Assembly (NCBI GenBank): GCA_965262585.1
Contig: OZ253546.1
Coordinates: 1,930,547 to 1,994,546 of the forward strand
DNA length: 64,000 nt
From: Candidatus Poriferihabitaceae bacterium
GTDB lineage: Bacteria > Pseudomonadota > Gammaproteobacteria > Arenicellales > Poriferihabitantaceae
Direction of reading: 5' to 3'
The notes below the pieces were generated by a model. That model saw only the letters and a list, made by a program, of their open reading frames with translations. It searched no databases and was not told the DNA's origin. The position numbers were made by a program, and so were the translations under genes. Positions 30,045-55,979 of the stretch are shown piece after piece (position 1 is the stretch's first letter; the number at the start of each line of letters is the position of its first letter).

Positions 30045-31436
30045 TCAATGCGCCAACGCCAAATCGGCGGCAATGGCGAAACCGATTCCTTCGGTGCTTT
30101 GTTCGGCGATTTTGAAGGTCATAATGCCGACCAAATTTCCCTCGTTATCGAATAATCCGCCCCCCGAAGAACCCGGCGAAATGGCCGCATCGGTTTGGAT
30201 ATAGCGCGTGCCGTCAAGCGTCCGCAGTTGCGAAACAAGCCCGGACGAAAGCGATAAATCGTACCCTTGCGGCGCCCCCAGACCATACACATCCTCGCCC
30301 ACCGTGAGGGTGTCATAACGCCGCACCGCCGCCGGCACACCCCACAAACCGTCCACATCCAACAAGCAAAAATCTTTCGCCACATCAGCACGGCGAATAC
30401 TGGCGGAAAAACTGCGCTCGGTATCCGCCCGGCGACCAACCGATTTATACACGGCAATCTCGCCGCCCTCATCAACCACATGGCAATTAGTCGCCACGAC
30501 ATTCGGGCGAATGATGACACCGCTGCCCTGCCCATCGCCATTGATCACAACCACCACCGAACGCCAAGCATTCTCAAACACTTTCGCGGCAATATTCACC
30601 GCTTTGGGCGCAACGGCAATGGCGATTTGCTCGCCGATGGTGGGCTTTTCCGTGGCTTGTTCCACACGATCATCAATCGCTTTCAACCGCCGCGCCGCCT
30701 CTTTCTGCGCGGCACGGATTTCGCTTTGTGATAGATACTCTCGCCAATTCTTCTTCCGCAAACTATCAGCGGCGAGTTCCTCGCCATTTGCTTTGGCGAT
30801 GGAATACCAAATATAGGCTTCATACTCATCCGTGATAACGCCTTCGCCGTTCCAGTATGAAACACCCAAATTATATTGCGCGCTTGCATATCCTTGTTCG
30901 GCCGATTTTCGAAACCACCGCACCGCCTCGCGCTGGTCTTTGACGATGCCTTTGCCGTTCGAGCATGCCAAGCCGAAATTAAGTTGCGCACCCGCTTGCC
31001 CTTGCTCCGCTGCTTTTCGAAACCACTGCACCGCTTTGTGCCGGTCTTTGGCGATTCCTTCGCCGGTCCAGTATGCGATGCCCAAATTATATTGCGCGTC
31101 AGCCAGATATTGTTCCGCTGATTTTTGATACCACTGCACCGCTTCGTGTTGGTCTTTAGCGATTCCTTCGCCGTTCCAGTATGCAACGCCCAAATTATTT
31201 TGCGCTTTCGCAAGACCCTGTTCTGCTGCTTTTCGAAACCACTGAATCGCTTCGTGCTGGTTTTCGGCTACGCCTTCGCCGAACCAGTATGCGGCACCCA
31301 AATTAAATTGCGCATTCGCATCCCCCCGCTCCGCTTTCGCACGCAATTCCTTGCTTGAAGTTTGCGCGCCCGAGAAGGGTGCCATCATCCGCGCCAAAGC
31401 GGCCACGAGCAACCCACGAAGTATTTGCATTTTCAT
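30045..31436 (-). CDS. Secreted Sel1-repeat protein fused to a C-terminal trypsin-like (S1/Trypsin_2) serine protease domain
   Basis: Signal peptide, then about 5 Sel1 repeats (GEGIAKD..EAV.W..KAAEQG...AQ.NLG.AY). Next comes the module EYEAYIWYSIAKANG...SEIRAAQKEAARRL. The protease domain has a His (TNCHVV), Asp (DFCLLDV), Ser (GSSGGG) triad. Confidence 0.8.
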   Translation of the reverse strand: MKMQILRGLLVAALARMMAPFSGAQTSSKELRAKAERGDANAQFNLGAAYWFGEGVAENQHEAIQWFRKAAEQGLAKAQNNLGVAYWNGEGIAKDQHEAVQWYQKSAEQYLADAQYNLGIAYWTGEGIAKDRHKAVQWFRKAAEQGQAGAQLNFGLACSNGKGIVKDQREAVRWFRKSAEQGYASAQYNLGVSYWNGEGVITDEYEAYIWYSIAKANGEELAADSLRKKNWREYLSQSEIRAAQKEAARRLKAIDDRVEQATEKPTIGEQIAIAVAPKAVNIAAKVFENAWRSVVVVINGDGQGSGVIIRPNVVATNCHVVDEGGEIAVYKSVGRRADTERSFSASIRRADVAKDFCLLDVDGLWGVPAAVRRYDTLTVGEDVYGLGAPQGYDLSLSSGLVSQLRTLDGTRYIQTDAAISPGSSGGGLFDNEGNLVGIMTFKIAEQSTEGIGFAIAADLALAH

Positions 31437-31460
31437 TTTTCTTCCAAGTCCCGAAAAAAA

Positions 31461-31539
31461 TTATCCCACAAATATCAAAATCCAGAGCAATACGATTTGG
31501 ATGCTGTTGACTAGTCGCCAGCCAGTCGGCGTTCTCGTG
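31461..31539 (-). repeat. Relic copy of the 3' end of the DUF4149-like gene (original at 33927..34060)
   Basis: TTATCCCACAAATATCAAAATCC[A/C]GAGCAATACGATTTGGATGCTGTTGAC is almost identical to 33927..33977, followed by homology to 34028..34055 after a roughly 50-bp deletion. Confidence 0.75.
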
Positions 31540-31579
31540 GGGTGCGGCGGCGATGGCAATATGCACATCGCCGACGGGT

Positions 31580-32911
31580 TTATTCTACGCCCTTGTCAAT
31601 CTCATCCAACCGCCGCGCCGCCTCTTTCAGCGCAGCACGGATTTCGCTTTGCGATAGACGCTCTCGCCAATTCTTACGTAAGACATCAGAGGCGCGTTCA
31701 TCGCCACTTGCCTTGGCGATGGAAAACCAGATATAGGCTTCATATTTATCTGTGATAACGCCTTCGCCGGTCTCGTATGCAACACCCAGATTATTTTGTG
31801 CGCTTGCATGTCCTTGTTCCGCCGATTTTCGATACCACCGCACCGCCTCGCGCTGGTCTTTGGCCGTGCCTTCGCCGAAGTCATATGCAACACCCAAATT
31901 ATATTGTGCGTTCACATGTCCTTGTTCCGCTGCTTTTCGAAACCACAGCACCGCCTTGCGCTGGTCTTTGGCAATGCCATAGCCGAACCAGTATGCGTGG
32001 CCCAAAGAAAATTGCGCGTCCGCATACCCCTGTTCCGCTGCTTTTCGAAACCACCGCACCGCCTCGCGCTGGTCTTTGTCGATGCCTTCGCCGCGCCGGT
32101 ATGCGTTGCCCAAAGAAAATTGCGCAACCGCAAGCCCTTGTTCCGCTGCTTTTCGATACCATCGTACTGCCTCGCGATGGTCTTCGGCGATGCCTTCGCC
32201 GTGATCATATGCTGAGCCCAAAATAAATTGCGCTCCCGCAATCCCTTGTTCCGCCGATTTTCGATACCACCGCACCGCCTCACGTTCGTCTTTAGCGGTG
32301 CCTTCGCCGAACCGGTATGCGAAGCCCAAAACAAATTGCGCGTTTGCATATCCTTGTTCCGCCGCTTTTCGATACCACCGCACCGCCTCACGCTGGTCTT
32401 TGTCGATGCCTTCGCCGTGATCATATGCTGAGCCCAAAATAAATTGCGCTCCCGCAATCCCTTGTTCCGCTGCTTTTCGATACCACCGCACCGCCTCACG
32501 CTGGTCTTTGTCGATGCCTTCGCCGTTCCAGTATGCGTTGCCCAAGTTATGTTGCGCTCCCGCATTCCCTTGTTCCGCCGCTTTTCGAAACCACCGCACT
32601 GCCTCACGCTGGTCTTTGGCGATGCCTTCGCCGGTCGAGTATGCGTAGCCCAAATCAAATTGCGCTTTCGCAAGCCCTTGTTCCGCTGCTTTTCGAAGCC
32701 ACCGCACCGCTTCGCGTTGATCTTTGCCGATCTTCTCTCCGCCGGACCAGTATATAGTGCCCATAGCATATTGTGCACTCGCACTCCCTCGCTCCGCCAA
32801 TGCACGAAGTTCATCAATTATTGAATTTTGCGCAACCGAAACAGGCACCATCATCGCCATCAAAACGACCACAACTAACATCCGAAACATCTTCATTTCA
32901 TTTTTCTCCAA
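31580..32911 (-). CDS. Secreted Sel1-repeat protein (about 10 tandem 36-aa repeats)
   Basis: Signal peptide, then a regular 108-bp / 36-aa periodicity (GEGI.KDQREAVRWYRKAAEQG.A.AQF.LG.AY). Shares the C-terminal module KYEAYIWFSIAKASG...SEIRAALKEAARRL. Confidence 0.85.
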   Translation of the reverse strand: MEKNEMKMFRMLVVVVLMAMMVPVSVAQNSIIDELRALAERGSASAQYAMGTIYWSGGEKIGKDQREAVRWLRKAAEQGLAKAQFDLGYAYSTGEGIAKDQREAVRWFRKAAEQGNAGAQHNLGNAYWNGEGIDKDQREAVRWYRKAAEQGIAGAQFILGSAYDHGEGIDKDQREAVRWYRKAAEQGYANAQFVLGFAYRFGEGTAKDEREAVRWYRKSAEQGIAGAQFILGSAYDHGEGIAEDHREAVRWYRKAAEQGLAVAQFSLGNAYRRGEGIDKDQREAVRWFRKAAEQGYADAQFSLGHAYWFGYGIAKDQRKAVLWFRKAAEQGHVNAQYNLGVAYDFGEGTAKDQREAVRWYRKSAEQGHASAQNNLGVAYETGEGVITDKYEAYIWFSIAKASGDERASDVLRKNWRERLSQSEIRAALKEAARRLDEIDKGVE

Positions 32912-32924
32912 GTTCTAAAAAAAC

Positions 32925-32976
32925 CTACTCCACAAATATCAAAATCCCGAGCAATACGATTTGTTTGTGGAGTTTA
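32925..32976 (-). repeat. Second relic copy of the DUF4149-like gene 3' end
   Basis: CTCCACAAATATCAAAATCCCGAGCAATACGATTTGTTTGTGGAGTTTA matches 33931..33970 joined to 33988..34002, with an internal deletion between two GATTTG sites. Confidence 0.7.
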
Positions 32977-33004
32977 GGGTCACCAGTGGCGAGTTTTCCG
33001 TGGC

Positions 33005-33898
33005 TTACTCGACGCGCTTGCCAATTTCCTCCAACCGCCGCGCCGCTTCTTTCTGCGCGGCGCGGATTTTACTTTGCGATAGATACTTTTGCCAATTAGC
33101 CTCACGCAATTTATCAGCGGCGGGTTCAATGCCGTTTGCCTTGGCGATGGAAAACCAGATATAGGCTTCATACTCATCCGCGATAGTGCCTGCGCCGTTC
33201 CAATATAAAGCACCCAAATTAAATTGCGCAGCAGCATGCCCTTGTTCCGCCGCTTTTCGAAACCACCGCCTCGCCTCGGGCTGGTTTTTGGTGATGCCTT
33301 CGCCGGTTAAGTATGCGGCACCCAAATTAAATTGCGCGCCTGTATGTCCTTGTTCTGCTGCTTTTCGATACCATCGCACCGCCTCACGCTGGTTTTTAGT
33401 GATGCCTTCGCCGTTCGAGTATGCATTGGCCAAATTAAATTGCGCTTCCGCAAGCCCTTGCTCGGCTGATTTTCGAAACCATCGCACTGCCTCGCGTTGG
33501 TCTTCGGCGATGCCTTCGCCTAAGTTATATGCGATGCCCAAATTATATTGCGCTTTCATATTCCCTTGTTCGGCTACTTTTCGAAACCATCGCACCGCCT
33601 CGTGCGGGTTTTTGGCAATGCCTTCGCCGCGACCATATGCGATGCCCAAAGTAAGTTGCGCATCCGTATGCCCTTGTTCTGCCGCTTTTCGGAACCACCG
33701 CACCGACTCGCGCTGGTTTTTGGCAACGCCTTCGCCGTTTAAGTATGCAGCACCCAAATAAAATTGCGCTTCTGCATCCCCCCGCTCTGCTTCCGCACGC
33801 AGAGCCTCGATTTCCTCGCTTGAAGTTTGCGTGTCCGAGAAGGGCGCAATTATCCGCTTCAAAGCAGTAGCCACCACACGAGATATCGGTCTTTTCAT
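33005..33898 (-). CDS. Sel1-repeat protein (about 6 repeats)
   Basis: Same repeat consensus and the same C-terminal module (EYEAYIWFSIAKANG...SKIRAAQKEAARRLEEIGKRVE). Confidence 0.85.
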   Translation of the reverse strand: MKRPISRVVATALKRIIAPFSDTQTSSEEIEALRAEAERGDAEAQFYLGAAYLNGEGVAKNQRESVRWFRKAAEQGHTDAQLTLGIAYGRGEGIAKNPHEAVRWFRKVAEQGNMKAQYNLGIAYNLGEGIAEDQREAVRWFRKSAEQGLAEAQFNLANAYSNGEGITKNQREAVRWYRKAAEQGHTGAQFNLGAAYLTGEGITKNQPEARRWFRKAAEQGHAAAQFNLGALYWNGAGTIADEYEAYIWFSIAKANGIEPAADKLREANWQKYLSQSKIRAAQKEAARRLEEIGKRVE

Positions 33899-39603: not shown

Positions 39604-39703
39604 GGCGACAGGGGCTGGTTATAGACGCGCATGCAGGCTATAGTCACGGAACCTCGCCGAAAAAAACAGGTCATTGGCGCATATCGATTATCAGGTGATT
39701 ACG

Positions 39704-40228
39704 ATGAAAAAGATAACGTTTATTCTATTGTGTTTGTTGCTGACGGGTAGCCTTGCGCTTGCCTCCGGCGGCGGTTCTGGTGGCAGTAGCGGCGGCGGTT
39801 CTGGTGGCAGTTCCGGCGGCGGTTCCGGTGGCAGTTCTGGTGGCGGTTCCGGTGGCAGTTCTGGCGGCGGTTCCGGCGGCGGTTCCGGCGGTAGTTCCGG
39901 TGGCGGTTCCGGCGGTAGTTCCGGTGGCAGTTCCGGCGGTAGTTCTGGCGGTAGTTCTGGCGGCAGTTCCGGCGGCAGTAGCGGCGGCAGTTCTGGCGGC
40001 GGTGGCGGGGGAACTGCGGCCCAATCCGGCAACTACGACATTGGCAAGGCGGTGTTCTTCTCAAAACTACACTGCGATGCCTGCCCGCTGTCCAATCTTG
40101 AACTGGACGAGTCGGCGGTATCTTCTATCCTGCCGTCGCTAAAATCCGGCGGCGACCTCGGTAAATTGTTAAGTTACCGGGAAAGGTATGCGGTTAGATA
40201 CTTTCTCAAAAGACGGTTTAATCTGTGA
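39704..40228 (+). CDS. Secreted protein: signal peptide, a roughly 85-aa (Gly-Gly-Ser)n tract, then a roughly 70-aa C-terminal domain with CDAC
   Basis: AGGTGA SD upstream of ATG 39704. Signal peptide MKKITFILLCLLLTGSLALA|S. The tail GKAVFFSKLHCDACP looks like a cytochrome-c motif with Pro in place of His. Confidence 0.6.
   Translation: MKKITFILLCLLLTGSLALASGGGSGGSSGGGSGGSSGGGSGGSSGGGSGGSSGGGSGGGSGGSSGGGSGGSSGGSSGGSSGGSSGGSSGGSSGGSSGGGGGGTAAQSGNYDIGKAVFFSKLHCDACPLSNLELDESAVSSILPSLKSGGDLGKLLSYRERYAVRYFLKRRFNL
39765..40011 (+). repeat. Coding microsatellite-like tandem repeat (GGC GGC/GGT AGT/TCT units, 12-15 nt periodicity)
   Basis: About 250 bp composed almost only of GGCGGYAGTTCYGGYGGC variants. 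It produces spurious repeat ORFs in other frames and on both strands. Confidence 0.9.
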
Positions 40229-42769: not shown

Positions 42770-44683
42770 TTACTTCACCAGCAACTTATTAATTCGCTTA
42801 ACATAATCACCCGGGTCTTTGAGCGTTGCGCCTTCCGCTAGTGCGGCGTGGTCGAACAACACATTGGCCCACTCTTCGATCAAGTCACCCTCGGCGTCGA
42901 TCTGTTTGACAATGGCGTGCTGCGGGTTGATTTCTAAAATCGGTTTGCTGTCCGGTGCGTCCTGGCCGATGGCTTGCAAAATGCGCGCCATGTTGCCGCC
43001 GATGTCGTGGCTGTCGGCCACCAGACAAGCGGGCGAATCCACCAGTCGGTTGGAAATCCGCACTTCTTTAACCTTATCTTCAAGCACCGACTTGATTTTG
43101 TCCACCAGCGGTTTCATCCGCGCCGATTGCGGGTCGGCTTTTTCTTCACTGTCTTCGGCGGGGCTTTTTTCGCCCGTCAGTTCACCGATATCGAGGTCGC
43201 CTTTGGCAATCGATTGCAGTGGTTTTTCCTGATAACTGTTCAGGTGGCCGACCACCCATTCGTCAACCGAATCGGATAGCAATAACACCTCGATGTCGTT
43301 CTTGCGGAACACCTCGAGATGTGGAGACGATTTCGCCCCCGCGTGGCTGTCGGCGGTCACATAGTAAATCGCTTTTTGTTTTTCCGGCATCCGGGTGAGA
43401 TAATCTTCAAGCGAGACACTTTGCGTGTCGTCGTCCACATGCGTGGAAGCGAAACGCAACAGTTTGGCGAGCGCGTCTTTGTTTTCAGAATCCTCGATCA
43501 TCCCTTCCTTAATCACGCGACCGTATTCTTTCCACAACGCCGCATATGCATCGCTGTCGTTGGCGGCGATTTTTTTCAGTTCGTTCAGAACTTTTTTGAC
43601 CGAAGCGGCGCGGATTTTGTCGATCTGTTTGTTTTGCTGCAGAAATTCCCGCGACACATTCAACGGCAGGTCGGCGGAATCCACCAAGCCGCGCACGAAA
43701 CGCAGGTAATTCGGCATTAATTGCTTGGCATCCTCGGCGATGAAAATCCGCCGCACATAAAGTTTGATGCCATGCCGTTGCTCGCGATCCCACAAATCGA
43801 ACGGCGCCTTCGATGGGATGTAGAACAACGAGATATACTCCATTTTCCCTTCAACCCGGTTGTGTAGCGTGACCGCCGGCGGCTGCGAATCATAGGTAAG
43901 CGCGGTATACAAAGCGTTATATTCATCGGCGGAAATCTCGGTTTTTGGACGCGCCCACAACGCCGATCCATCGTTGACGGTTTCCCATTGCGCTTCCTGT
44001 CCGGCAATTTCCTTTCCATCGTCATCGCGCTCCAGTTCCTTTTGCATTTGGATTGGCAGCGAGATGTGATCGGAATATTTTCCGATGATGGAGCGCAGGC
44101 GATAATGCTCCCTAAATTCCTTTTGCTCGGGTTTCAGTTTGAGGATGATTTCGGTGCCACGCTCGCGCCGCTCGATGGTTTCAAGGGTGTATTCGCCGCT
44201 GCCGTCGGAGACCCATTTAACCCCTTCAGATTCCGGCGTTCCGGCGCGGCGCGTCAGCAGCGTAACTTCCCCGGCCACCAGAAAAGCCGAATAAAACCCG
44301 ACCCCGAACTGGCCGATGAACGAACTGTCGCGCGCTTCATCTTTGCTCATCTGTTCGATGAATTGGCGCGTGCCGGAGCGGGCGATGGTGCCGATATTCT
44401 CGATCACTTCATCGTGACTCATGCCGATGCCGTTGTCGCGAATGGTGATGGTTTTTTTCTTGTCGTCGATGTCGATCCAAATGCCGAGTGCTTGGTCGTC
44501 TTCGTATAAGTTTTTGTCGGTCAGCGCCAAAAACCGCAGCCGGTCGCAGGCATCCGAAGCATTGGAAATCAACTCACGCAGAAAAATTTCCTTGTTGCTG
44601 TAGAGCGAATGGATGATGAGGTGCAGCAGTTGCTGAACCTCGGTTTGAAACGCATGGGTTTCAACGGCGGTTTTGACGGTCAT
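42770..44683 (-). CDS. htpG: Molecular chaperone HtpG (Hsp90)
   Basis: FQTEVQQLLHLIIHSLYSNKEIFLRELISNASDA and GQFGVGFYS. Start at MTVKTAVETHAF (ATG 44683). Confidence 0.95.
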   Translation of the reverse strand: MTVKTAVETHAFQTEVQQLLHLIIHSLYSNKEIFLRELISNASDACDRLRFLALTDKNLYEDDQALGIWIDIDDKKKTITIRDNGIGMSHDEVIENIGTIARSGTRQFIEQMSKDEARDSSFIGQFGVGFYSAFLVAGEVTLLTRRAGTPESEGVKWVSDGSGEYTLETIERRERGTEIILKLKPEQKEFREHYRLRSIIGKYSDHISLPIQMQKELERDDDGKEIAGQEAQWETVNDGSALWARPKTEISADEYNALYTALTYDSQPPAVTLHNRVEGKMEYISLFYIPSKAPFDLWDREQRHGIKLYVRRIFIAEDAKQLMPNYLRFVRGLVDSADLPLNVSREFLQQNKQIDKIRAASVKKVLNELKKIAANDSDAYAALWKEYGRVIKEGMIEDSENKDALAKLLRFASTHVDDDTQSVSLEDYLTRMPEKQKAIYYVTADSHAGAKSSPHLEVFRKNDIEVLLLSDSVDEWVVGHLNSYQEKPLQSIAKGDLDIGELTGEKSPAEDSEEKADPQSARMKPLVDKIKSVLEDKVKEVRISNRLVDSPACLVADSHDIGGNMARILQAIGQDAPDSKPILEINPQHAIVKQIDAEGDLIEEWANVLFDHAALAEGATLKDPGDYVKRINKLLVK

Positions 44684-44731
44684 AATAATGGTCGGTGCAG
44701 GTTGGAGTGATAATTCGAGCAAACGCGGAAA

Positions 44732-44758
44732 AAATGGGGATGCCACGCCGATTTTCAA
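44732..44758 (-). promoter_or_regulatory. Sigma-32 (RpoH) heat-shock promoter of htpG
   Basis: The minus strand reads gTTGAAA-13 nt-CCCCATTT, matching the TTGAAA-N13/14-CCCCATNT consensus. It lies about 45 nt upstream of the htpG ATG. Confidence 0.65.
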
Positions 44759-44789
44759 CCCCCACGGCGGCCAAATGACGACCTTGCGA

Positions 44790-45400
44790 TAGCCGACTCC
44801 CCAGGCCCGTCATTCTCGCGAAAGCGGGAATCCAGTACAACATGTCCTGCGACAGCCGACTCCTTATTAGCCTTCTGGATTCCCGATACGATGAAAAATA
44901 TGGTCGCTGGCGCTCCCTATTTTTCTATCGTTCGGGAATGACGCACTTTTGATATTCCTCGTTTGTCGATGAGGACTCCCAGATCGTCATTCTCGTGCCG
45001 CCAAGTCGTTATTTCCGCGACAGCGGGAATAACGACTTGGGGGACACGGGAATCCAGTGAAACATGCCGGCGACAGCCGACTCCCTACGCCGTTATTCTC
45101 GCGCAACTGGAATCCAGTACAACATGTCCTGCGAGATCCGACTCATTATTAGCCTTCTGGATTCCCGATACGATGAAAAATATGGTCGCTGGCGCTCCCT
45201 ATTTTTCTATCGTTCGAGAATGACGCACTTTTGATATTCCTCGTTTGTCGATGAGGACTCCCAGATCGTCATTCTCGTGCCCCCAAGTCGTTATTTCCGC
45301 GACAGCGGGAATGACGACTTGGGGGACACGGGAATCCAGTGAAACAAGTCCGGCGACAGCCGCTCCTTATAATAACCGGCTCCGGCGGGCATTTAATCGC
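44790..45400. repeat. Array of REP-like hairpin modules (left array), including a roughly 282-bp tandem duplication
   Basis: Three modules recur. One is CGTCATTCTCGCGAAAGCGGGAATCCAG. The second is a roughly 62-bp hairpin, ATTCCCGATACGATGAAAAATA..TATTTTTCTATCGTTCGGGAAT. The third is a roughly 40-bp hairpin, CCAAGTCGTTATTTCCGCGACAGCGGGAATAACGACTTGG. Segment 44868.. repeats at 45148... Confidence 0.85.
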
Positions 45401-45410
45401 GATTTGTGGC

Positions 45411-45440
45411 TTGACTATCCGGCAATCGCTTCAATATAAT
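45411..45440 (+). promoter_or_regulatory. Near-consensus sigma-70 promoter of the autotransporter gene
   Basis: TTGACT (45411), an 18-nt spacer, then TATAAT (45435). GAGGA SD lies about 9 nt before ATG 45502. Confidence 0.55.
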
Positions 45441-45501
45441 GGCTGAGACTTTGTATTTGTGGAAACCTTTCAACGGCGCATTATTACGAGGAACATTTAC
45501 C

Positions 45502-48500
45502 ATGAACTATCACAGCACAATCAATAACATGAATTCCCCTGACGGCCTGTCGTCCGTCCCCTTTAATTCGGGGGGGGGGGGGGGGGCAATAGTGCTCGGC
45601 GTTTCGGCGTTGCGCTACTGATTGGATTTACTCTTTTCCTCGGCTGGTCGATAGAGGCCAGTGCACAGGAAGCCGTCAGACTACCAAATCCGAGTGGAGT
45701 CGGTGCCAACCCCAACACGAACTTCATCGTTCTGTACTACCCGACTAACCAGGCGATTACCCCCCTGACCCTGCCGACGGGCAGCGGCGGCTCCGCCCCT
45801 TTGACCTACAGTATATTTCATGTTAACACCGGAGCCACAGGCATATACGACCAGTTGGGGCTGACCTTTAACCCGACCACCCGCGTTCTGTCCGGCACGC
45901 CGACCACGGCTACCTCCGGCCCGACACCCGCAGATGGTTTTCCAGCCGGCTATGGTGCGTCTGACGGAACCGGAAGTTCACAAGCCTTCGCCTTGATACA
46001 AATGTTTGTCTTCATCTGCGAAGCCGGGAAAGAGGGAAACATCAGCGGCACAGTTCCTTGCTATGTTGATTTGGCTGTATCGACGTTGTCCGATGTGAAC
46101 TATGTCGCCGGTCAGGCGATTACCCCCCTGACCCTGCCGGAGGCCACCGGCGGCAGCGTAAACATCTCCCCCACAATCGTCACCCAACGGACTTATACAT
46201 TGGCACCGTTGCCGGATGGCCTGACCTTTGACGCAACTACCCGCGTCTTATCCGGCACGCCGACCACGGCCGGCAACATCACTCCGGTATACGGAGTGAC
46301 CGACACCCTAAGCGGGAGAACACTAACCCCGACCGCTTCTTTCACCGCCACGGTAGGAGCCGGGTTGGGCGCGTCTGCGCCGGGTGCTCAAACCTATCCG
46401 CGCAACGCGGCGATCACCGCTTTGACCTTGCCGGAAGCGGCCGGCGGCACAGGTCCGTATACCTACACTCTGACCGGGCCGAGCGGTGGTAATTTGCCAG
46501 CCGGATTGGCTTTTGCCACAGGCACCCGCATTCTGTCCGGCACGCCGACCACGGCAGGCGTCACCGAGTTGACCTACACCGCCACCGATGCGAACAGCAT
46601 CATGGACACGGCGACCTTCACAGTGACCATCACTACAACGATGTTCACCGATACGGTATCTGATCCGACCTATGTCATAAATGAGGCGGTCAATTTGACT
46701 TTGCCGGGAGCGGTTGGCGGCACAGGTTCGTATACCTACACCCTGACCGGGCCGAGCGGTGGTAACTTGCCGGTCGGATTGGCTTTTGCCACAGGCACCC
46801 GCATTCTGTCCGGCACGCCGACCACGGCCGGCAACACCGTGTTGACCTACACCGCCACCGATTCGGTCGGCAACAGCGACCCTGCGACCTTCACAGTGAC
46901 CATCACTACAACGATGTTCACCGAGATGGTGGCTAATCAAACCTATACTATAGATAGGGCGGTCAATTTGACTTTGCCGGGAGCGGTTGGCGGCACAGGT
47001 TCGTATACCTACACCCTGACCGGGCCGAGCGGTGCTGCCTTGCCAACCGGATTGGCTTTTGCCACAGGCACCCGCATTTTGTCCGGCACGCCGACCACGG
47101 CCGGCGTCACCGTGTTGACCTACACCGCCACCGATGCGAACAGCAACAGCGACACGATGACCTTTACCGTCACAGTAGCCGAGCCCGCCTCCGGCCCGGA
47201 CCCTGAAGATATCAGGGCCATCAACGAGGTATTTATCTCCGAATTGGCGACCACCATGACCGGCCAGACTTCGGGCGCCATCACACAACGCATCGCGCAA
47301 ACCAGATCCGGTAGTGGCGGCGGCGTAACCCTTGCAGGCCAGTCTTCTTTTGCTGACTTGGCGACTACCCATGGCAAATCTCTAACCGAAGGCACGAGTG
47401 ATATGAAATCCATGCTGAACGGTTCCGGGTTTGCGTTGCCGTTGAATGCAGTGGGAGGTGGTATTGGCGTGTATTCACCGGCTTTTTGGGGCAGTGGTGG
47501 GTATGAAGAGATTTCTGGTGAGAGTGATCTCACTGACGGCAAACTGGATTGGGACGGCGATGTCTCGAGTTTTTCGGTGGGGGTGGATGCGCACCTACGC
47601 AATAATTTGCTGGGCGGTGTGGCGATAACGCGCAACGAGGCGGATTTGGAATACGATGTTACCAACGATGATGACAAAAGCGACTACGAATTGACCATGA
47701 CCAGCGTCAATCCGTATCTGGGTTGGAGAGTCGGGCAGTTAGACTTTTGGGCCACGGTTGGCTACGGCACCGGTGATTTGGATACCACCGACATCGACAG
47801 CGATGTGGACATGCGATCCTTCGCCGGTGGCGGTGGCGGCCAAATAATGGCACTCGGCAATGGCGGCACCTTGCGTCTCAAAGGCGAAGTCTCGCAAACC
47901 TGGGTAAATGTGGACGCCGACCGCGCAAACAATATTCGCTCGCTGGATGTGGACGTCAACCGAGTTCGAGTATCGCTGGAAGCACGCCAGCCCTGGGCGA
48001 TAAGCCACGCCACCAAATTGCAATCCACCCTGGAAGTAGGCGCGCGCCATGACGGCGGCGACGGCGAAACCGGCACCGGACTTGAATTGAATGCCGGTCT
48101 TCGCTATCACACTCAGAGGCTGACGCTGGAAGGCAATATCCACACCCTGCTAGGCCGTGAAGACTACGACGAATGGGGCATAAGCGGCACCATCATCCTG
48201 CAATCTGGCAAAGATGGACAGGGTTTGTCGCTAAGTCTAAGCCCCGGCTACGGCGAGGCTGGCGATCGCAAGTTGTGGGATAACGGCCTGCCGGAAGACA
48301 GCATCGCTGAGACTGATTACGAAATGCGCCTAAACACCCGCATTGGCTATGGCATATCCGCTCCTCATGGTTGGGATGGAATGCTAACCCCATACAGCGA
48401 AATGACCCTCGGCACCACCAACAGTTACCGCTTCGGCATCGGTTGGGAAATTAACCGCTATGGTTTGGATTTGGTTGGGGAACATCGTCAAGGTGGTGAG

Positions 48501-48536
48501 AATGCTGCTTTGGTTAAGGGTGAGGTGCGGTTTTAG
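45502..48536 (+). CDS. He_PIG/cadherin-like-repeat autotransporter (type Va), frameshifted at a poly-G tract in this assembly (predicted phase-variable, OFF)
   Basis: ATG 45502 (frame 1) runs into G17 at 45570..45586 and stops at 45621. Frame 0 after the tract encodes a signal peptide, ..RRFGVALLIGFTLFLGWSIEASA|QE. This is followed by 5 repeats of the type LTLP..GGTG.YTYTL...LSGTPTTAG...TATD, and a beta-barrel ending ...VKGEVRF. The first canonical in-frame start after the tract is TTG 45801, which lies inside repeat 1. Confidence 0.75.
45570..45586 (+). repeat. Homopolymeric G17 tract inside the 5' coding region
   Basis: Counted directly: the last base of block 45561-70, all of block 45571-80, and the first six bases of block 45581-90. 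G18 or G15 would join the upstream ATG frame to the main ORF. Confidence 0.95.
46389..47180 (+). repeat. Three near-identical tandem coding repeats (276, 273 and about 243+ bp) in the passenger domain
   Basis: Units start at 46389, 46665 and 46938. Long identical runs occur, e.g. GGCGGCACAGGTTCGTATACCTACACCCTGACCGGGCCGAGCGGTG and GCTTTTGCCACAGGCACCCGCATT.TGTCCGGCACGCCGACCACGGC. Confidence 0.85.
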
Positions 48537-48544
48537 ATTCCCTC

Positions 48545-49200
48545 TCGTCATCCGCAAACGAGGAATATCAAAAGTGCGTCATTCTCGAACGATAGAAAAA
48601 TAGGGAGCGCCAGCGACCATATTTTTCATCGTCCCCCAGATCGTCATTCCCGAACGATAGAAAAATAAGGAGCGCCAGCGACTATATTTTTCATCGTATC
48701 GGGAATCCAGAAGGCCAATAAGGAGTCGGCTGTCGCCGGCATGTTTTACTGGATTCCCGCTTTCGCGAGAATGACGGCGAGAGGAGCGGCTATCGCCGGA
48801 CATGTTTTACTGGATTCCCGTGTCCCCCAACTCGTCATTCCCGCTGTCGCGGAAATAACGACTTGGCGGCACGAGAATGACGGCCCTGGGGAGTCGGCTA
48901 TCGCAAGGTCGTCATTCTCGAACGATAGAAAAATAAGGAGCGCCAGCGACTATATTTTTCATCGTATCGGGAATCCAGAAAGCCAAATAAGGAGTCGGCT
49001 GTCGCAGGAATGACGGCCCTGGGGAGTCGGCTATCGCAAGGTCGTCATTCCCGAACGATAGAAAAATAGGGAGCGCCAGCGACCTTATTTTTCATCGTAT
49101 CGGGAATCCAGTGAAACAATCCCGACTCAGCCGGACCTTATATAAGGAGCGGCTTACGTCGTTTCGGACAGGCACGGGGGCCTGTCCCTACGAGGGCGGA
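48545..49200. repeat. Array of REP-like hairpin modules (right array), inverted relative to the left array
   Basis: 48555..48603 is the exact reverse complement of 45199..45247 (49 bp). 48637..48900 aligns to the reverse complement of 44761..44942 with few mismatches. Ends with the hairpin GGACAGGCACGGGGGCCTGTCC (49170..49191). Confidence 0.85.
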
Positions 49201-49276
49201 ACGGACAAAACTTCAATACCCATCCGTGCTTTAATATCATCCACAGGGCAATAGGGGGGTGGGCGCAGACGGTTCA

Positions 49277-49305
49277 TTGACGGCGGCGGCCAATATCCGT
49301 ATAGT
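49277..49305 (+). promoter_or_regulatory. Sigma-70 promoter of the tRNA operon
   Basis: TTGACG, a 17-nt spacer, then TATAGT, followed by a GC-rich discriminator (TTGCGGCC). About 70 nt upstream of tRNA-Pro. Confidence 0.55.
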
Positions 49306-49374
49306 TTGCGGCCTTGGCCGTGGTCGAAGCCGATACAATTCGGTGTTTATTGCGGCTAGTATCGGAGCCAGTAT

Positions 49375-49451
49375 CGGGGTATAGCGCAGCCTGGTAGCGC
49401 GCCTGCTTTGGGAGCAGGATGTCGGGAGTTCAAATCTCTCTACCCCGACCA
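49375..49451 (+). tRNA. tRNA-Pro (anticodon UGG)
   Basis: Cloverleaf with acceptor CGGGGTA/TACCCCG, anticodon loop TTTGGGA and an encoded CCA. Confidence 0.85.
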
Positions 49452-49468
49452 ATTTTCGCTTATTCGTT

Positions 49469-49545
49469 GCGCCCGTAGCTCAACCGGATAGAGCAACGGC
49501 CTTCTAAGCCGTAGGTTACAGGTTCGAATCCTGTCGGGCGCGCCA
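49469..49545 (+). tRNA. tRNA-Arg (anticodon UCU)
   Basis: Acceptor GCGCCCG/CGGGCGC, anticodon loop CTTCTAA, TTCGAAT T-loop and CCA. Confidence 0.85.
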
Positions 49546-49633
49546 TGCGCATTGGCGGTTTCTGCGCAGATTCTCGTATACAATATATGGCGGGAATCGA
49601 GATTGCGGAAGCAAACTCGAATCGAAAGAATAT

Positions 49634-49710
49634 GGTGAGCGTAGCTCAGTTGGTAGAGCCCCGGATTGTGATTCCGGTCGTCGTGGGTTCGAGTCCCATC
49701 GTTCACCCCA
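49634..49710 (+). tRNA. tRNA-His (anticodon GUG)
   Basis: Extra 5' G(-1), anticodon loop TTGTGAT, TTCGAGT T-loop and CCA. Confidence 0.85.
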
Positions 49711-49733
49711 AGTTTTTTTCGGCGGATTATGAC

Positions 49734-49810
<77 letters not shown>

Positions 49811-49847
49811 GTTATTCGGCGAATATACGGTGTAGAAATATTTGTGT

Positions 49848-49932
<85 letters not shown>

Positions 49933-50004
49933 TTCGCAGGGCGTCGAATGAGCGTTTGATTTGATAAATTTAAGCGAGGTGCCGCGAATGCGGCGGTGGG
50001 CATA

Positions 50005-51321
50005 ATGCAAATATCGGTTGAAAAAATCGGCGCCATCGAGCGGCGGGTGACGGTGTCGATCCCCGGCGACGAGGTTGGCAGGGAAATCGCCAAGCGTCTG
50101 CGCGAGGTCGCCAAGCACAAGCGCATTGACGGATTCCGCCCCGGCAAAGCACCGCAAAACCTGATCGAAAAACGCTACGGCGCGCAGGTGACCGGCGAGG
50201 TCGTCAACGAAACCATCAACTCCAGTTACCGCCGGGCACTGAGCAAGGAAGAGATCGTGCCGGCTGGTCTGGTGTCCATCGAACCCAAGCCGTTTGTCGC
50301 GGGCGACGATCTGCAATATGTCGCCACCATCGAGTTGTATCCCGAAATTCCCTCGCCGACTCTGGCCGGGCGGACCATCGAAAAACCGGTATGCGCGGTT
50401 ACCGACGAAGATATTGCGCGCACCCTCGAAGACATCCGCAAACGCCACGCCGATTTCGTCGCCAAAGACACCGACAAGGAAGGAAAATCCCAACACGGCG
50501 ACCGCCTGACCATCGATTTTGTCGGCAAGATAGACGGCCAACCGTTCACCGGCGGATCGGCGGACGGGCATCAATTCGTGCTCGGAGAAGGGCATGTGTT
50601 CGAGGGTTTTGAAACCGAATTGCTCGCGGTTGCGGTTGGTGATTCCAAGCAAATAGCGATCACTTTTCCCGAGGATTATCCGGGTGCCGATATCGCCGGC
50701 AAGGCGGCTGAATTTGCGGTCACGGTGACCTCGGTGGAGCGGCGAATCTTGCCGGAATTGGATAATGCGTTCGCTGAAAAACTCGGCATTGCCGAAGGCG
50801 GTATGGAAAAAATGCGCAAGGAAATCGTGGTCAGTTTGAATCGTGAGTTGGCGACTCGGCTGCGCACGGTGATTCGTGCGCGGGTGATGAATGAGTTGAT
50901 CGCGGTCAATCCAATCGAGGCGCCGAAATCGCTGGTGGATTCCGAAATCGAACGGCGGGTGTCATCGGTTAAGGAACGGATGGATGCGCTCGATGCGCCG
51001 CAGCAGGAAGGCGTGCGCGAGCGTTTTGCCGTCGAGGCGCGCGAGCAGGTAACCCTCGGATTGATCGCACGCGAGATCATCGAAAAATCTGAAATGAAGG
51101 CCGACTCGGCACTGGTTCGGGAACGAATCGAGGAGATGGCGAGCGGCTATGATGACGGCGAGGCGATGATTAACTGGTATTATTCCGACCCGGAGCGGTT
51201 GCGGCAGGTCGAATCGATAGCGTTGGACGAGCAAGTGGTGGCGCGCATGTTGGAAACCGCCACCGTTACCGAAAAAAAGGTATCATTGCAGGAATTGATG
51301 AACCCACGCGGCGATTTCTGA
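50005..51321 (+). CDS. tig: Trigger factor
   Basis: [20 protein letters not shown]..., FKBP-type PPIase middle domain. Conserved position upstream of clpP. Confidence 0.9.
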
Positions 51322-51389
51322 GTCACCAGTTGTCCATTTCGCCGTTATCCGTTTTTTTTATCCCTACTCAATCACACAAATTCAACCCC

Positions 51390-52013
51390 ATGCCAACCGA
51401 CCAACCCTTGCCTCCGCGCAACTTGAATCAGATTCCGATGGTGGTCGAGACCACCGGCCGCGGCGAACGCGCATATGATATTTATTCCCGGCTGCTCAAG
51501 GAGCGGGTGGTGTTTTTGGTCGGGCAGTTCGAGGATCAGATGGCCAACCTCATCGTCGCCCAACTACTATTCCTCGAATCGGAAAATCCGGAAAAAGATA
51601 TTTCTTTGTATATCAACAGCCCCGGCGGAATGGTTTCATCGGGCCTCGCGATCTACGACACCATGCAGTTCATCCGCCCCGATGTCAGCACCGTGTGCAT
51701 CGGTCAGGCGGCCAGTATGGGAGCGGTGATTCTGGCCGGCGGCGCGCCGAAAAAACGCCACGCGCTGCCCCATTCCAGGGTGATGATTCACCAGCCCATG
51801 GGCGGTTCCCAGGGTCAGGCGTCCGACATTGAAATCCACACCCGGGAAATCCTCGGCGCACGGGAAAAACTCAACCGTATTTTCGTCGAGCACACCGGCC
51901 AGCCCATCGACCGAATCCAGCAAGATACCGACCGCGATTATTTCCTGAGCGCCGCCGAGGCCACCGAATACGGCATTATTGACTCGGTGTTGAGCAAGCG
52001 CGAAGGAGCGTGA
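51390..52013 (+). CDS. clpP: ATP-dependent Clp protease proteolytic subunit
   Basis: [20 protein letters not shown], active-site GQAASMGA and HQP. Start at MPTDQ (ATG 51390). Confidence 0.95.
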
Positions 52014-52101
52014 GTAACCAAATAACGCACAAATAAAGGTTGAAAAAAACCGGCAAACCCTGCAATCTTGGGGTCTGTTCCGTAATCGCGCCTATCATTA
52101 A

Positions 52102-53385
52102 ATGCCTGAAGATAGCCCTACCAAGAGCGAAAAACCCCTGTATTGCTCGTTCTGCGGCAAGAGTCAGCACGAAGTACGCAAGTTGATCGCCGGTCCGTCG
52201 GTGTTCATCTGCAACGAATGCGTCGATCTGTGCAACGACATCATCCGTGAGGAAACCGGCGATGATGGGAATGCCGAGGCACGTGCCAGCGGGTTCCCCA
52301 CCCCTCCGGAAATTCACGCCATCTTGGATGAATATGTCATCGGCCAGCAGAACGCCAAAAAGACGCTTTCGGTGGCGGTCTACAACCACTACAAGCGCAT
52401 CGAAAACGAAGAAGCGGTGGGCGAGGTGGATATTTCCAAGAGCAACATCCTGCTCATCGGCCCCACCGGTTCGGGCAAGACGCTGCTGGCGGAGACTCTG
52501 GCGCGACAACTCAACGTCCCCTTCACCATCGCCGACGCCACCACGCTCACCGAAGCCGGTTATGTCGGCGAGGATGTCGAGAACATCATTCAGAAACTTC
52601 TGCAAACCTGCGACTACGAGATCGAAAAAGCCCAGATCGGAATCGTCTATATCGATGAGATCGATAAAATCTCACGCAAAGCCGACAACCCGTCCATCAC
52701 CAGGGACGTCTCCGGCGAAGGGGTGCAGCAGGCATTGCTGAAGTTAATTGAAGGAACCGTCGCATCCATCCCGCCTCAGGGCGGACGCAAGCATCCCCAG
52801 CAAGAATTCCTGCAGGTGGATACCCGCAACATTCTGTTCATCTGCGGCGGTGCTTTCGCCGGTATGGAAAAAGTGATTCAGGAGCGCACCGAAAAATCCG
52901 GCATCGGCTTCGGCGCCGACATCCGGGAAAAATCTGCCGATGAACGCGCCAACGAGTTGCTCCAGGATCTGGAGCCCGAGGATCTCATTAAGTATGGCTT
53001 GATCCCGGAATTTATTGGCCGCCTGCCGGTGGTGGCGATCCTCGAAGAGTTGGACGAGGACTCACTCATCCGGATTCTGACCGAGCCGCGCAATGCGCTC
53101 ACCAAACAATACGCCAAACTCCTCAAACTGGAGGGCGTCGACCTGGAGTTCCGTGCCGAAGCGTTGCGCCGGGTCGCCAAAAAGGCCATGGAGCGCAAGG
53201 CCGGCGCCCGTGGCTTGCGGTCGATTCTCGAAAGCGCCCTGATGGAAACCATGTACGAGTTGCCGTCCATCCACGGAATCAAGAAGGTGATCGTGGACGA
53301 GTCGGTCATCACCGAGGGTTCGCGGCCGCTGTATGTCTACGAGGAAGATAAGGAAAAACGCTCTGCGGGGGCTTCTTCTTCCTGA
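52102..53385 (+). CDS. clpX: ATP-dependent Clp protease ATP-binding subunit ClpX
   Basis: Zinc-binding [11 protein letters not shown]...CNEC. Walker [12 protein letters not shown]-type loop. Confidence 0.95.
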
Positions 53386-53462
53386 TTCAACGGCTTGGCG
53401 ACCCGCTACGAACCGAGTTGCTGCTGTGATATGCTCGTTGAAACATACTTGAAACATGCTTA

Positions 53463-53490
53463 TTGAAATGGCCGGTCGGCGGCCTTACTT
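53463..53490 (+). promoter_or_regulatory. Possible sigma-32 promoter of lon
   Basis: TTGAAA-14 nt-CCTTACTT, a partial match to CCCCATNT. It is the last of three TTGAAA hexamers (53438, 53449, 53463), about 60 nt upstream of the lon ATG. Confidence 0.35.
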
Positions 53491-53552
53491 TTAAGTATCT
53501 GGCCCGGTCGCCATTATCCAGTTACCGCTTTTACCCTTACGGAGCCCCGTTC

Positions 53553-55979
53553 ATGCCTGACCCTATCCAGCCCCCCATCATCGACCTGCCAGTGCTGCCG
53601 TTGCGGGATGTGGTGGTCTTTCCCCATATGGTGATCCCGCTGTTTGTCGGTCGTGCGCGCTCCATCAAGGCGTTGGAGGCGGCGATGAAAGAGGGCAAGA
53701 ATATCTTGCTGGTGGCGCAAAAGGACGCCTCCCAGGATTCTCCCAACCCCACCGATATCTACCGGGTTGGTACCGTCGCCTCCATCTTGCAAATGCTCAA
53801 GATGCCCGACGGTACGGTCAAGGTGCTGGTGGAAGGGGAACAGCGGGCGAGCATCATTCGCTTTACCCACGAGCCGGACGATGACGAAATCGGGTTTTCC
53901 TGTGAGGCGCAGCCGGTGGATGACGATTATGAATCCTCCCGCGAATCCGAAGTGCTGGTGCGCGCGGTGTCCGCCGAATTTGAAAAATATATCAAACTCA
54001 ATCCCAAAATTCCGCCGGAGATTTTGACTTCCCTCGCCGGTATCGAACACCCCGGGCGAGTCGGCGACACCATCGCCGCGCATCTCAATCTCAAAAACGA
54101 AGCCAAGCAGAAGATTCTGGAACTGCTCATTCCCGCGGAGCGCCTCGAGCATATTCTCGGCGTTATGGATTTGGAGATCGACCTGCTGCAGGTGGAAAAA
54201 CAGATTCGCACCCGGGTCAAAAAGCAGATGGAAAAAAGCCAGCGCGAGTATTACCTGAACGAGCAGATGAAGGCCATTCAGAAAGAACTGGGGGATATGG
54301 AAGACGTGCCCAACGAGACCGACGAACTGGCGAAGAAGATCGCCGATTCCGGCATGTCCAAAGAAGCCCTGGAGAAAGCCGAGAGCGAACTTAAAAAACT
54401 GAAAATGATGTCGCCGATGTCAGCCGAGGCGACCGTGGTGCGCAACTACATCGACTGGTTGCTGGCGGTGCCGTGGAAAAAGCAAAGCCGCACATACAAG
54501 GATTTAGCCAAGGCCCAAAAAATACTCGACGATGACCATTACGGCCTTGAAAAGGTCAAAGACCGCATCCTCGAATATCTGGCGGTGCAGCAGCGAGTGA
54601 AAAAATCAAAGGCGGCGATACTGTGTTTGGTGGGCCCCCCCGGAGTCGGCAAGACCTCCCTCGGCCAATCCATCGCGCGCGCCACCAACCGCAAATTCCT
54701 GCGCATGTCCCTGGGCGGGGTGCGCGATGAAGCGGAAATCCGCGGCCACCGGCGAACTTATATCGGCTCAATGCCGGGCAAGGTCATTCAGAATCTCGCC
54801 AAGGGCAAAACCCGCAACCCGCTGTTCATGCTCGACGAAGTGGATAAAATGTCCATGGATTTTCGCGGCGACCCGTCCTCGGCGTTGCTCGAGGTGCTCG
54901 ACCCGGAGCAAAACCACACCTTCGGCGATCACTATCTGGAAGTCGATTACGATCTCTCCGATGTGATGTTTATCGCCACCGCCAACACCCTCAACATCCC
55001 CAGCCCGCTGCTCGACCGCATGGAAGTGATTCGAATTTCCGGCTACACCGAAGAAGAAAAATGCGAAATCGCCGACCGCTACCTGTTGCCGAAACAGCGC
55101 ATCAACAATGGCTTGAAAGAAAGTGAAGTCAGCGTAAGCGCCAAAGCCATAAAGGAAATCATCGCGTCTTGGACCCGCGAAGCGGGGGTGCGCAACCTGG
55201 AGCGGGAGATCGCGAAAATTTTCCGTAAAGTGGTGAAAGAATTTTTGCTCAACAAGAAAAAGAAAACCGTCCACATCACCCCGGCGCGTCTGGAGAAATA
55301 TCTCGGGGTCAAAAAATACCGCCACAACGGTGTCGAACAGGAAAACAAGGTCGGTCAGGTGACCGGGCTGGCGTGGACCGAAGCGGGCGGTGAGTTGTTG
55401 CGCATAGAAACCGTGGTCATGCCCGGCAAGGGCAAGCACGTATACACCGGCAAACTCGGCAATGTCATGCAGGAATCCATCACCGCCGCCATCAGCGTGG
55501 TCAGAAGCCACAGCGTGCAATGGGGCATCACCGCGGATTTCCATCAAAACCGGGACATCCACATCCACGTTCCCGATGGCGCGACTCCGAAGGACGGGCC
55601 GAGCGCCGGTATCGGTATGTGCATCGCCATCACTTCGGCCCTGACCGGAATCCCGGTATGGGCGAACATCGCCATGACCGGGGAAATCACCTTGCGCGGC
55701 GAAGTGCTGCCCATCGGTGGGCTCAAGGAAAAATTGCTCGCCGCCCACCGCGCCGGTTTGAAAACGGTGTTGATCCCCCACGAGAATTCCCCCGAACTGC
55801 AGGAGATTCCGGAAAAAATTCGCCGCGAACTCGATATCAAACCGGTGAAATGGATTGACGAAGTGATCGAGTTGGCCCTTGAAACGACACCTCACGCCAA
55901 AACCGAACCGGGCAAATCGGCAACAAAAAGCCGGCGCAGTAAAAAAGAACAAACCGGATCCAACCTAACCGCTCACTAG
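53553..55979 (+). CDS. lon: Lon protease
   Basis: [23 protein letters not shown], Walker A GPPGVGKT, and catalytic Ser in PKDGPSAG. Start at MPDPIQPP (ATG 53553). Confidence 0.95.

Follow-up and report, generated by a model that had tools for sequence, protein, structure and literature searches.

A long poly-G tract in the leader of a He_PIG-repeat autotransporter gene as a probable slipped-strand switch in an uncultured gammaproteobacterium

To our knowledge, almost all documented cases of slipped-strand phase variation come from animal pathogens, together with a small number of gut commensals. In Campylobacter jejuni, the gene of the autotransporter CapA is split by a G tract into Cj0628/Cj0629. 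The poly-G phasome of Campylobacter has been surveyed across the genus (PMC6321876), the autotransporter genes nalP and mspA of Neisseria meningitidis carry poly-C tracts of 6-15 nucleotides (nt) whose ON lengths were verified by immunoblotting (PMC3723659), and in the sortase-dependent pilus clusters of Bifidobacterium breve UCC2003 the first pilin gene has a G-tract between its Sec signal and its body (PMC9187656). Here we analyze a predicted autotransporter gene from an uncultured marine gammaproteobacterium, located in a 64-kb stretch of DNA (the window; all coordinates are window positions), in which a run of 17 G residues (G17, 45570..45586) separates the start codon from a predicted signal peptide. 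An initial annotation of the window had proposed that this tract acts as a slipped-strand phase switch. The mechanism is already established elsewhere while the host lineage and the gene family are new, and the novelty claimed by that annotation, a textbook mechanism in a new setting, was modest and fair.

Like NalP and MspA, the protein is a predicted type V autotransporter with a proposed ON/OFF switch in an intragenic homopolymer, the length of which varies between strains such that one class in three is in frame (7, 10 or 13 C for NalP), and as a further likeness the Neisseria genes have flanking repeats that mediate recombination or deletion (PMC3723659). The systems differ in that the Neisseria tracts measure 6-15 nt as opposed to 16-29 nt here, the passengers there are serine proteases rather than He_PIG immunoglobulin (Ig)-like repeats (the passengers share no sequence homology), and single genes of a human pathogen contrast with cassettes that form a near-identical family in a marine gammaproteobacterium not yet cultured. 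The Bifidobacterium pilin gene shares the arrangement of a poly-G tract between an open reading frame (ORF) for the Sec signal and a body ORF lacking its own start, found in a GC-rich, non-pathogenic, host-associated bacterium; there, the deposited tract length differs from that of the real population (PMC9187656). However, that host is Gram-positive and makes LPXTG pilins rather than an outer-membrane autotransporter, its tracts span 10-12 nt, and heterogeneity was measured directly, whereas here it comes from comparing assemblies. In C. jejuni, intragenic poly-G likewise splits surface-protein genes into two annotated ORFs, at many loci and with combinatorial variation, although that genome is AT-rich, its tracts span ~8-13 G and its genes are unrelated. 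In contrast, the present case involves a single gene family, whose common promoter-leader-tract cassette has been copied to several loci of a genome with 57% GC. What stands out is the combination of tracts of 16-29 nt, several paralogues with one promoter-leader-tract cassette, and an uncultured lineage. In the literature we found no paper joining He_PIG with an autotransporter and none on phase variation in sponge symbionts, and the papers searched have no record of phase variation in this lineage.

The gene is encoded on the plus strand. A sigma-70-type promoter (TTGACT-18-TATAAT, 45411..45440) agrees with the consensus at 11 of 12 positions and was the top promoter-like site of 44700..49400 in a consensus scan. 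It is followed by a Shine-Dalgarno sequence (GAGGA, 45488..45492), situated 9 nt upstream of ATG 45502, and by an N-terminal leader read in frame 0 (MNYHSTINNMNSPDGLSSVPFNS, 45502..45569), which forms an N-terminal extension of the signal peptide. After 68 nt this frame enters the uninterrupted G17 homopolymer, the proposed slipped-strand switch, which would encode poly-glycine when in frame, and it ends at a stop codon at 45619..45621, which would give a 39-amino-acid (aa) peptide. The body of the gene occupies another frame, shifted by +2 (equivalent to -1) relative to ATG 45502 in this assembly; translation and Pfam searches place the signal peptide, a He_PIG passenger and a β-barrel in it. 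This frame contains no stops from 45567 to 48536, and its earliest ATG, GTG or TTG codon is TTG 45801. Translating the three frames showed that G18 or G15 would join the ATG 45502 frame to the body and yield a protein of 1011 aa. Thus, as in a contingency locus, changes in the length of a tract placed between start codon and signal peptide shift the frame. The initial annotation had described each of these elements (the G17 run, the promoter with its GAGGA and ATG, the stop at 45621, the second frame without an initiation codon before TTG 45801, and a fusion product of ~1011 aa at G18 or G15), and re-reading the sequence confirmed them all. The longest other G/C run in the window is 7 nt and ~5e-5 runs of at least 17 nt are expected by chance from its base composition; the G17 tract is therefore not a chance feature.

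Nine related loci were then read as DNA from the ENA metagenome assembly ERZ26695902, where they lie on five contigs of ~13-415x coverage (one of them circular, 2,636,100 nt). Eight of the nine carry the tract and the remaining one, L009, is a tract-less paralogue; together with the window this gives nine tract copies. Four contigs encode a ClpX with 100% identity to that of the window and therefore represent co-occurring strains of one species. At the orthologous position between htpG and tig, the window has G17 (phase +2) while L002 has G27 (phase +2) and L004 has G28 (phase +1). The tract thus differs by 10-11 nt at a locus whose htpG and tig flanks are 98.1-98.5% identical over ~3.3 kb with zero gaps; a comparison of tract length in related genomes had been called for by the initial annotation. 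At the aceK/aceE locus, L001 carries G19 and is ON. At recR/SBP, the tracts are G16 in L003 (phase +1), G29 in L006 (phase +2) and G23 in L007 (phase +2), and at hrcA-DUF1285/ABC-F they are G21 in L005 (ON) and G19 in L008 (phase +1). Across the four chromosomal loci, two copies are ON, three are in phase +1 and four in phase +2.

The surroundings of the tract are conserved. The 190-nt cassette of promoter, Shine-Dalgarno sequence and leader is ~97-100% identical across the nine copies in an alignment of their 5' regions; the promoter hexamers are identical in 9/9 copies and also in L009, and the Shine-Dalgarno sequence is likewise conserved throughout. Every copy, including the seven that are out of phase, has an uninterrupted reading frame of 982-1002 codons after the tract, and all nine frames end in V(K/R)GE(V/I)RF. 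Over 80 kb of related loci, the eight tracts are the only G/C runs of at least 8 nt. In L009, which encodes a 1647-aa paralogue, the same promoter hexamers with the same spacing precede a homologous leader that is read in frame to RRRFG, with 'cagggtttg' (GGG only) at the tract site. This architecture indicates that ATG 45502 is the ancestral (true) start, and the tract looks as if a short G run had expanded within the signal peptide's N-terminal extension. The initial annotation had made its case depend on relatives retaining the segment from ATG to tract and on the existence of in-frame variants. The segment is present in 8/8 related tract copies, the tract-less paralogue reads its leader directly into the signal peptide, and in-frame variants are represented by L001 (G19), L005 (G21) and the database protein P0124.

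Because tracts of this family in sister strains span 16-29 G and occupy all three phases, a slipped-strand switch is very probable. We assign a probability of roughly 0.75 to the reading that a hypermutable poly-G tract inside the coding sequence gates autotransporter expression by slipped-strand ON/OFF switching. Judged by comparative sequence analysis, the locus shows the standard signatures of a simple-sequence contingency locus: a frame-setting repeat, polymorphism of that repeat between near-identical strains with conserved flanks, in-frame (ON) as well as out-of-frame (OFF) alleles, and OFF alleles that are otherwise undamaged. The comparison with relatives thereby supports the phase-switch proposal of the initial annotation; its statement that the gene is OFF in this assembly applies to the sequence as assembled and not necessarily to the cells.

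In the proposed mechanism, transcription would start from the conserved TTGACT-18-TATAAT promoter and translation from ATG 45502. The gene would be ON when the preceding C plus the G-run equals 1 modulo 3 (G18, G15, G21 and so on), that is, in one phase out of three. The ribosome would then read from the leader through poly-glycine and NSARRFG... into the signal peptide, passenger and barrel, and the protein would be exported to act at the cell surface. In the other two phases translation would end after 29-43 codons, and the body, having neither its own start codon nor a signal peptide, would place nothing at the surface. Slipped-strand mispairing during replication would alter the tract length at high frequency and presumably in both directions, making the OFF state reversible, and each paralogous cassette of the genome would behave as an independent stochastic ON/OFF switch.

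Several considerations weigh against this reading. The tract length and the OFF state were read from assembled sequences and not from cells, and ON and OFF as used here denote DNA reading frames alone. All of the relatives come from one metagenome assembly (ERZ26695902), the contig names (coverage, _c/_l) look like those of long-read assemblies, in which homopolymers are possibly off by a base, and deposited G-tract lengths can differ from those in the real population (PMC9187656). These same points favour a homopolymer miscall, whereby the real tract would be G18 (or G15), the gene intact and expressed, and the frameshift an assembly artefact: long G runs are the hardest sequence on every platform, the related contigs resemble long-read metagenome assemblies, the published warning about deposited G-tracts applies, and a single-base error would be enough. 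However, errors of +/-1 cannot yield G17 against G27/G28 at one locus, nor a family range of 16-29, and it follows that the polymorphism of the tract is real, regardless of how many G residues the window copy has. Moreover, contigs at 330-415x coverage show the ON, +1 and +2 phases side by side. We consider a miscall quite improbable, and if true it would change the state of the window copy, not the nature of the element. The view that the gene is a decaying pseudogene, with an inactivating frameshift in a redundant paralogue and a tract without regulatory role, is more improbable still. The gene is indeed out of frame, the public annotation holds only a truncated protein (P0001) without signal peptide, and with several paralogues the loss of one would be tolerable. 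Against this, 982-1002 codons free of stops or further frameshifts are maintained in 9/9 copies, seven of them out of phase, the promoter, Shine-Dalgarno sequence and leader are conserved at ~97-100%, and the sole lesion always falls at one hypermutable site, where one or two bases reverse it.

The other considerations concern the consequence of tract length. The near-even phases (2:3:4) fit fast random switching and would also fit DNA phase mattering little, and tracts of 16-29 nt exceed the classical cases, such that instability, or slippage of RNA polymerase or the ribosome, could make the OFF state leaky. In its strongest form this becomes a rival explanation, in which polymerase slippage or ribosome slippage on GGG.GGG gives full-length protein in any DNA phase and the tract sets the expression level rather than an ON/OFF state. 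The body in the window lies in the -1 (+2) frame, exactly the shift needed, and poly-G would be expected to permit re-pairing of tRNA-Gly; the RNA-DNA hybrid of ~9 bp is much shorter than the tract, and three phases of about equal frequency are expected under weak selection on DNA phase. On the other side, G/C runs slip less in E. coli, and no stimulatory RNA structure follows the tract, the fold there being no better than that of shuffled sequences (z = -1.34). Transcriptional slippage in bacteria (PMC1088944) bears on both sides: it is documented, and it is documented for long A/T runs. For the G-tract of the Bifidobacterium pilins, the closest case that has been tested, pilus expression was concluded to depend on the length of the tract in the DNA (PMC9187656). 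Recoding of this kind is unlikely as the full explanation but is a serious complement, being compatible with a DNA switch whose OFF state it would merely render leaky. Ribosomal frameshifting programmed by a stimulator downstream of the tract was rejected on the same fold result (z = -1.34).

Turning to the encoded protein, the body begins with a predicted Sec signal peptide (NSARRFGVALLIGFTLFLGWSIEASA, 45588..45665, frame +2, plus strand) that is attached to a start codon only when the tract is in phase. By inspection, it has an n-region with RR, a hydrophobic core of 17 residues and an A-x-A motif, with cleavage predicted after ASA and before QE (ASA|QE), which would give a mature N terminus beginning QEAVRLPNPSGVGANPNTNF... 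The motif 'SARRFG' raised the possibility of a twin-arginine translocation (Tat) signal; no Tat or other signal model matched among the Pfam and NCBIfam models, and the assignment was kept as Sec-type. The signal peptide is followed by a passenger of He_PIG/HYR Ig-like repeats and a linker (45666..47483, Pfam), which includes three tandem 273-nt units at 46421..47239. Pfam searches with the long frame returned He_PIG four times (9.5e-38), HYR and the autotransporter β-domain PF03797. In the PDB, a family-derived profile hits repeat modules of SraP, an adhesin of staphylococci, which fits an adhesin-like passenger.

The autotransporter β-domain and the rest of the barrel extend over 47484..48536, to a C-terminal ...VKGEVRF and the stop codon, as indicated by PF03797, AlphaFold2 and Foldseek. 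The PF03797 match (47484..48077; E = 4.5e-11) scores 43.4 bits where the cutoff is 26, but of the 255 profile positions it spans only 1-209. The C-terminal 388 aa (47370..48533) were modelled with AlphaFold2; the model, computed from an alignment of 32 sequences, shows an all-β, barrel-like fold with a mean predicted local distance difference test (pLDDT) score of 70, and its best PDB matches in Foldseek include the β-domains of EstA, EspP and BrkA. The model contains ~18 β elements over ~350 residues (in a fragment cut after a putative linker helix, mean pLDDT 70), and against 12-strand barrels it reaches template-modelling scores of only 0.4-0.65; compared with the classical type Va barrel of 12 strands, this one may be larger or divergent. 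Sequence searches of the barrel against the PDB gave no match, with the family profile returning passenger-type matches only, and the barrel assignment thus rests on Pfam and the fold search. All copies end in ...RF, providing the C-terminal aromatic residue. Taken together, several features of a type Va protein are present, namely a barrel translocator domain, a Sec signal (by inspection), a passenger and a C-terminal aromatic residue, and the locus is probably an adhesin-like gene of the type V autotransporter class whose passenger consists of Ig-like He_PIG repeats.

Protein databases were searched with the 1011-aa fused sequence. The public gene call for the window, P0001 (911 aa, 45801..48536, plus strand), starts at the TTG and is an annotation artefact of the OFF phase, since any signal peptide is absent from it. 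The search also returned a tight family of 75-86% identity on a handful of large contigs. One contig of 2,601,700 nt carries P0001 together with other family members, and the genome of the window therefore has several paralogues (P0004, P0007, P0009 and P0012). In-frame proteins starting MNYHNTINN...GGGGGGNSARRFG are present in the databases: P0003, P0122 and P0124 begin MNYHNTINNMSSPDGLSSVPFN(W/S)GGGGGG(G..)NSARRFG..., as in-frame products do, with the leader equivalent to 45502..45569 read in frame. P0005, P0006, P0008, P0009, P0011, P0121 and P0123 are N-terminally truncated calls, P0002 starts 'MGGGGGGGGGNSARRFG', and P0004 and P0007 start 'MTACRPSPLIRGGGGGG...', a translation of the leader in its +1 frame. 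From the proteins, tracts of ~G22 in P0004, ~G19 in P0007 and ~G25 (ON) in P0124 were deduced. The tract-less paralogues P0012 and P0013 (~1647 aa; L009) begin MSNHSKINKLNSADSPLATPVQGLRRRFGVSLL..., joining a leader (MSNHSKINKLNSADSPLATPVQG) homologous to that of the window to the signal peptide without poly-glycine. Public calls are consequently wrong in most family copies, being either truncated without signal peptides or given TTG/CTG starts in the wrong frame, and annotation pipelines and pangenome analyses will misjudge these genes. Searches with the 92-aa N terminus alone gave no match, the leader pattern was unmatched among JGI metagenome contigs, and the protein pattern and the exact 33-nt leader were unmatched in GTDB representative genomes, a set that lacks this lineage.

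Two alternative starts were considered. In the leader's +1 frame, position 45539 is the first letter of a CTG in the window, and some copies have TTG ACG GCC... there (TTG in L005 and L006); P0004 and P0007, from the genome of the window itself, were called from the equivalent position ('MTACRPSPLIRGGG...'). Use of such a start would make two phases out of three productive in the copies concerned. Such a CTG/TTG start ('MTACRPSPLIR...') was judged unlikely, as was a TTG at the tract edge in L002 ('MGGGGGGGGGNS...'), neither having a Shine-Dalgarno sequence upstream, and both are probably gene-caller rescues. Separately, three distant He_PIG proteins on other contigs (P0010, P0069 and P0098) have homopolymer-like N termini, …REGGGGGGGRPMPYH…, …TPPPPPPPPPPPRTFGSPMNSPRARRW… and …VAPPPPPPPQNS…, which lie within the signal peptide or directly ahead of it. 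Poly-G/poly-C tracts at the signal-peptide position may thus recur in the wider He_PIG family; that distant relatives with poly-glycine or poly-proline N termini switch likewise would be a weaker extension of the proposal.

The cassette is bordered by repeats. Upstream lies a modular array on the plus strand (44786..45366; 2.1 copies of a ~282-nt unit with ends CTGGATTCCCG...CGGGAATCCAG), and downstream an array of the same modular repeat is inverted (48542..49111, minus strand), with arms of the two arrays reaching 101 nt at 95% complementarity. This modular repeat, of ~240-280 nt, also flanks every family member in L001-L009; it has an internal 46-nt palindrome and stands in direct orientation upstream and inverted orientation downstream, the orientation being reversed in L009. 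Within the window, the 11-mer end of the repeat occurs only beside the autotransporter gene. These repeats are probably recombination substrates resembling miniature inverted-repeat transposable elements (MITEs) or repetitive extragenic palindromic (REP) sequences. A switch by inversion between the flanking repeats was rejected, as the promoter lies within the repeats and would invert along with the gene. The REP-like palindrome also suggested DNA uptake sequences (DUS) or uptake signal sequences (USS) of the Neisseria type; no Neisseria-type DUS was found, and there was one chance 9-mer USS match.

Passenger segments also appear to move between cassettes. Between nt ~1050 and ~1800 of its ORF, the gene in the window shows 100% identity to L003, a paralogue at another locus, but only ~91% to its positional orthologue L002, a pattern that suggests gene conversion between cassettes. 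L003 and L006 share the recR locus but differ in their N-terminal passenger modules. A broader reading, which we hold tentatively and at slightly less than even odds, is that these elements form a combinatorial surface-variation system in a probably host-associated bacterium, in which multiple switched cassettes, inverted repeat arrays and passenger exchange by gene conversion would act together. In this reading, each genome of ~2.6 Mb has no fewer than four or five He_PIG autotransporter paralogues, as cassettes that share promoter and leader and each have their own exceptionally long poly-G tract (16-29 nt). If correct, Ig-like adhesins would here show phase variation together with antigenic mosaicism, in a setting other than the classical pathogens.

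For the slipped-strand switch itself, the implication would be that the logic known from pathogens also operates in an uncultured marine gammaproteobacterial lineage, across a whole family of Ig-like surface proteins. Environmental or symbiotic bacteria would then also hedge their surface display, be it towards host recognition, phage or grazers, and tract length would be a simple marker with which to follow switching in metagenomic reads.

The nearest named relatives of ClpX from the window belong to uncultured Gammaproteobacteria, Acidiferrobacterales and Ca. Spongiihabitans (79%), and the GC content of the window is 57%, making plausible the GC-rich gammaproteobacterial host that the initial annotation had suggested. 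The cassette sits between conserved housekeeping genes, at the same place in three strains. Upstream is htpG (42770..44758, minus strand), and downstream are a cluster of tRNA genes (Pro, Arg, His, Lys, Leu; 49375..49932) and then tig, clpP, clpX and lon (49996..55979). Elsewhere in the window, three adjacent Sel1-repeat genes (30045..33898, minus strand) have a 108-nt period with 5, 10 and 6 repeats, the first being fused to a trypsin-like peptidase domain; 'eukaryote-like' repeat proteins of the Sel1/TPR type are typical of host-associated bacteria. Finally, a 12-nt tandem repeat (TCCGGCGGCAGT, 19.8 copies, 39764..40000) lies inside an ORF at 39674..40228, where it encodes an SGGS-type low-complexity stretch the length of which may vary without a frame shift.

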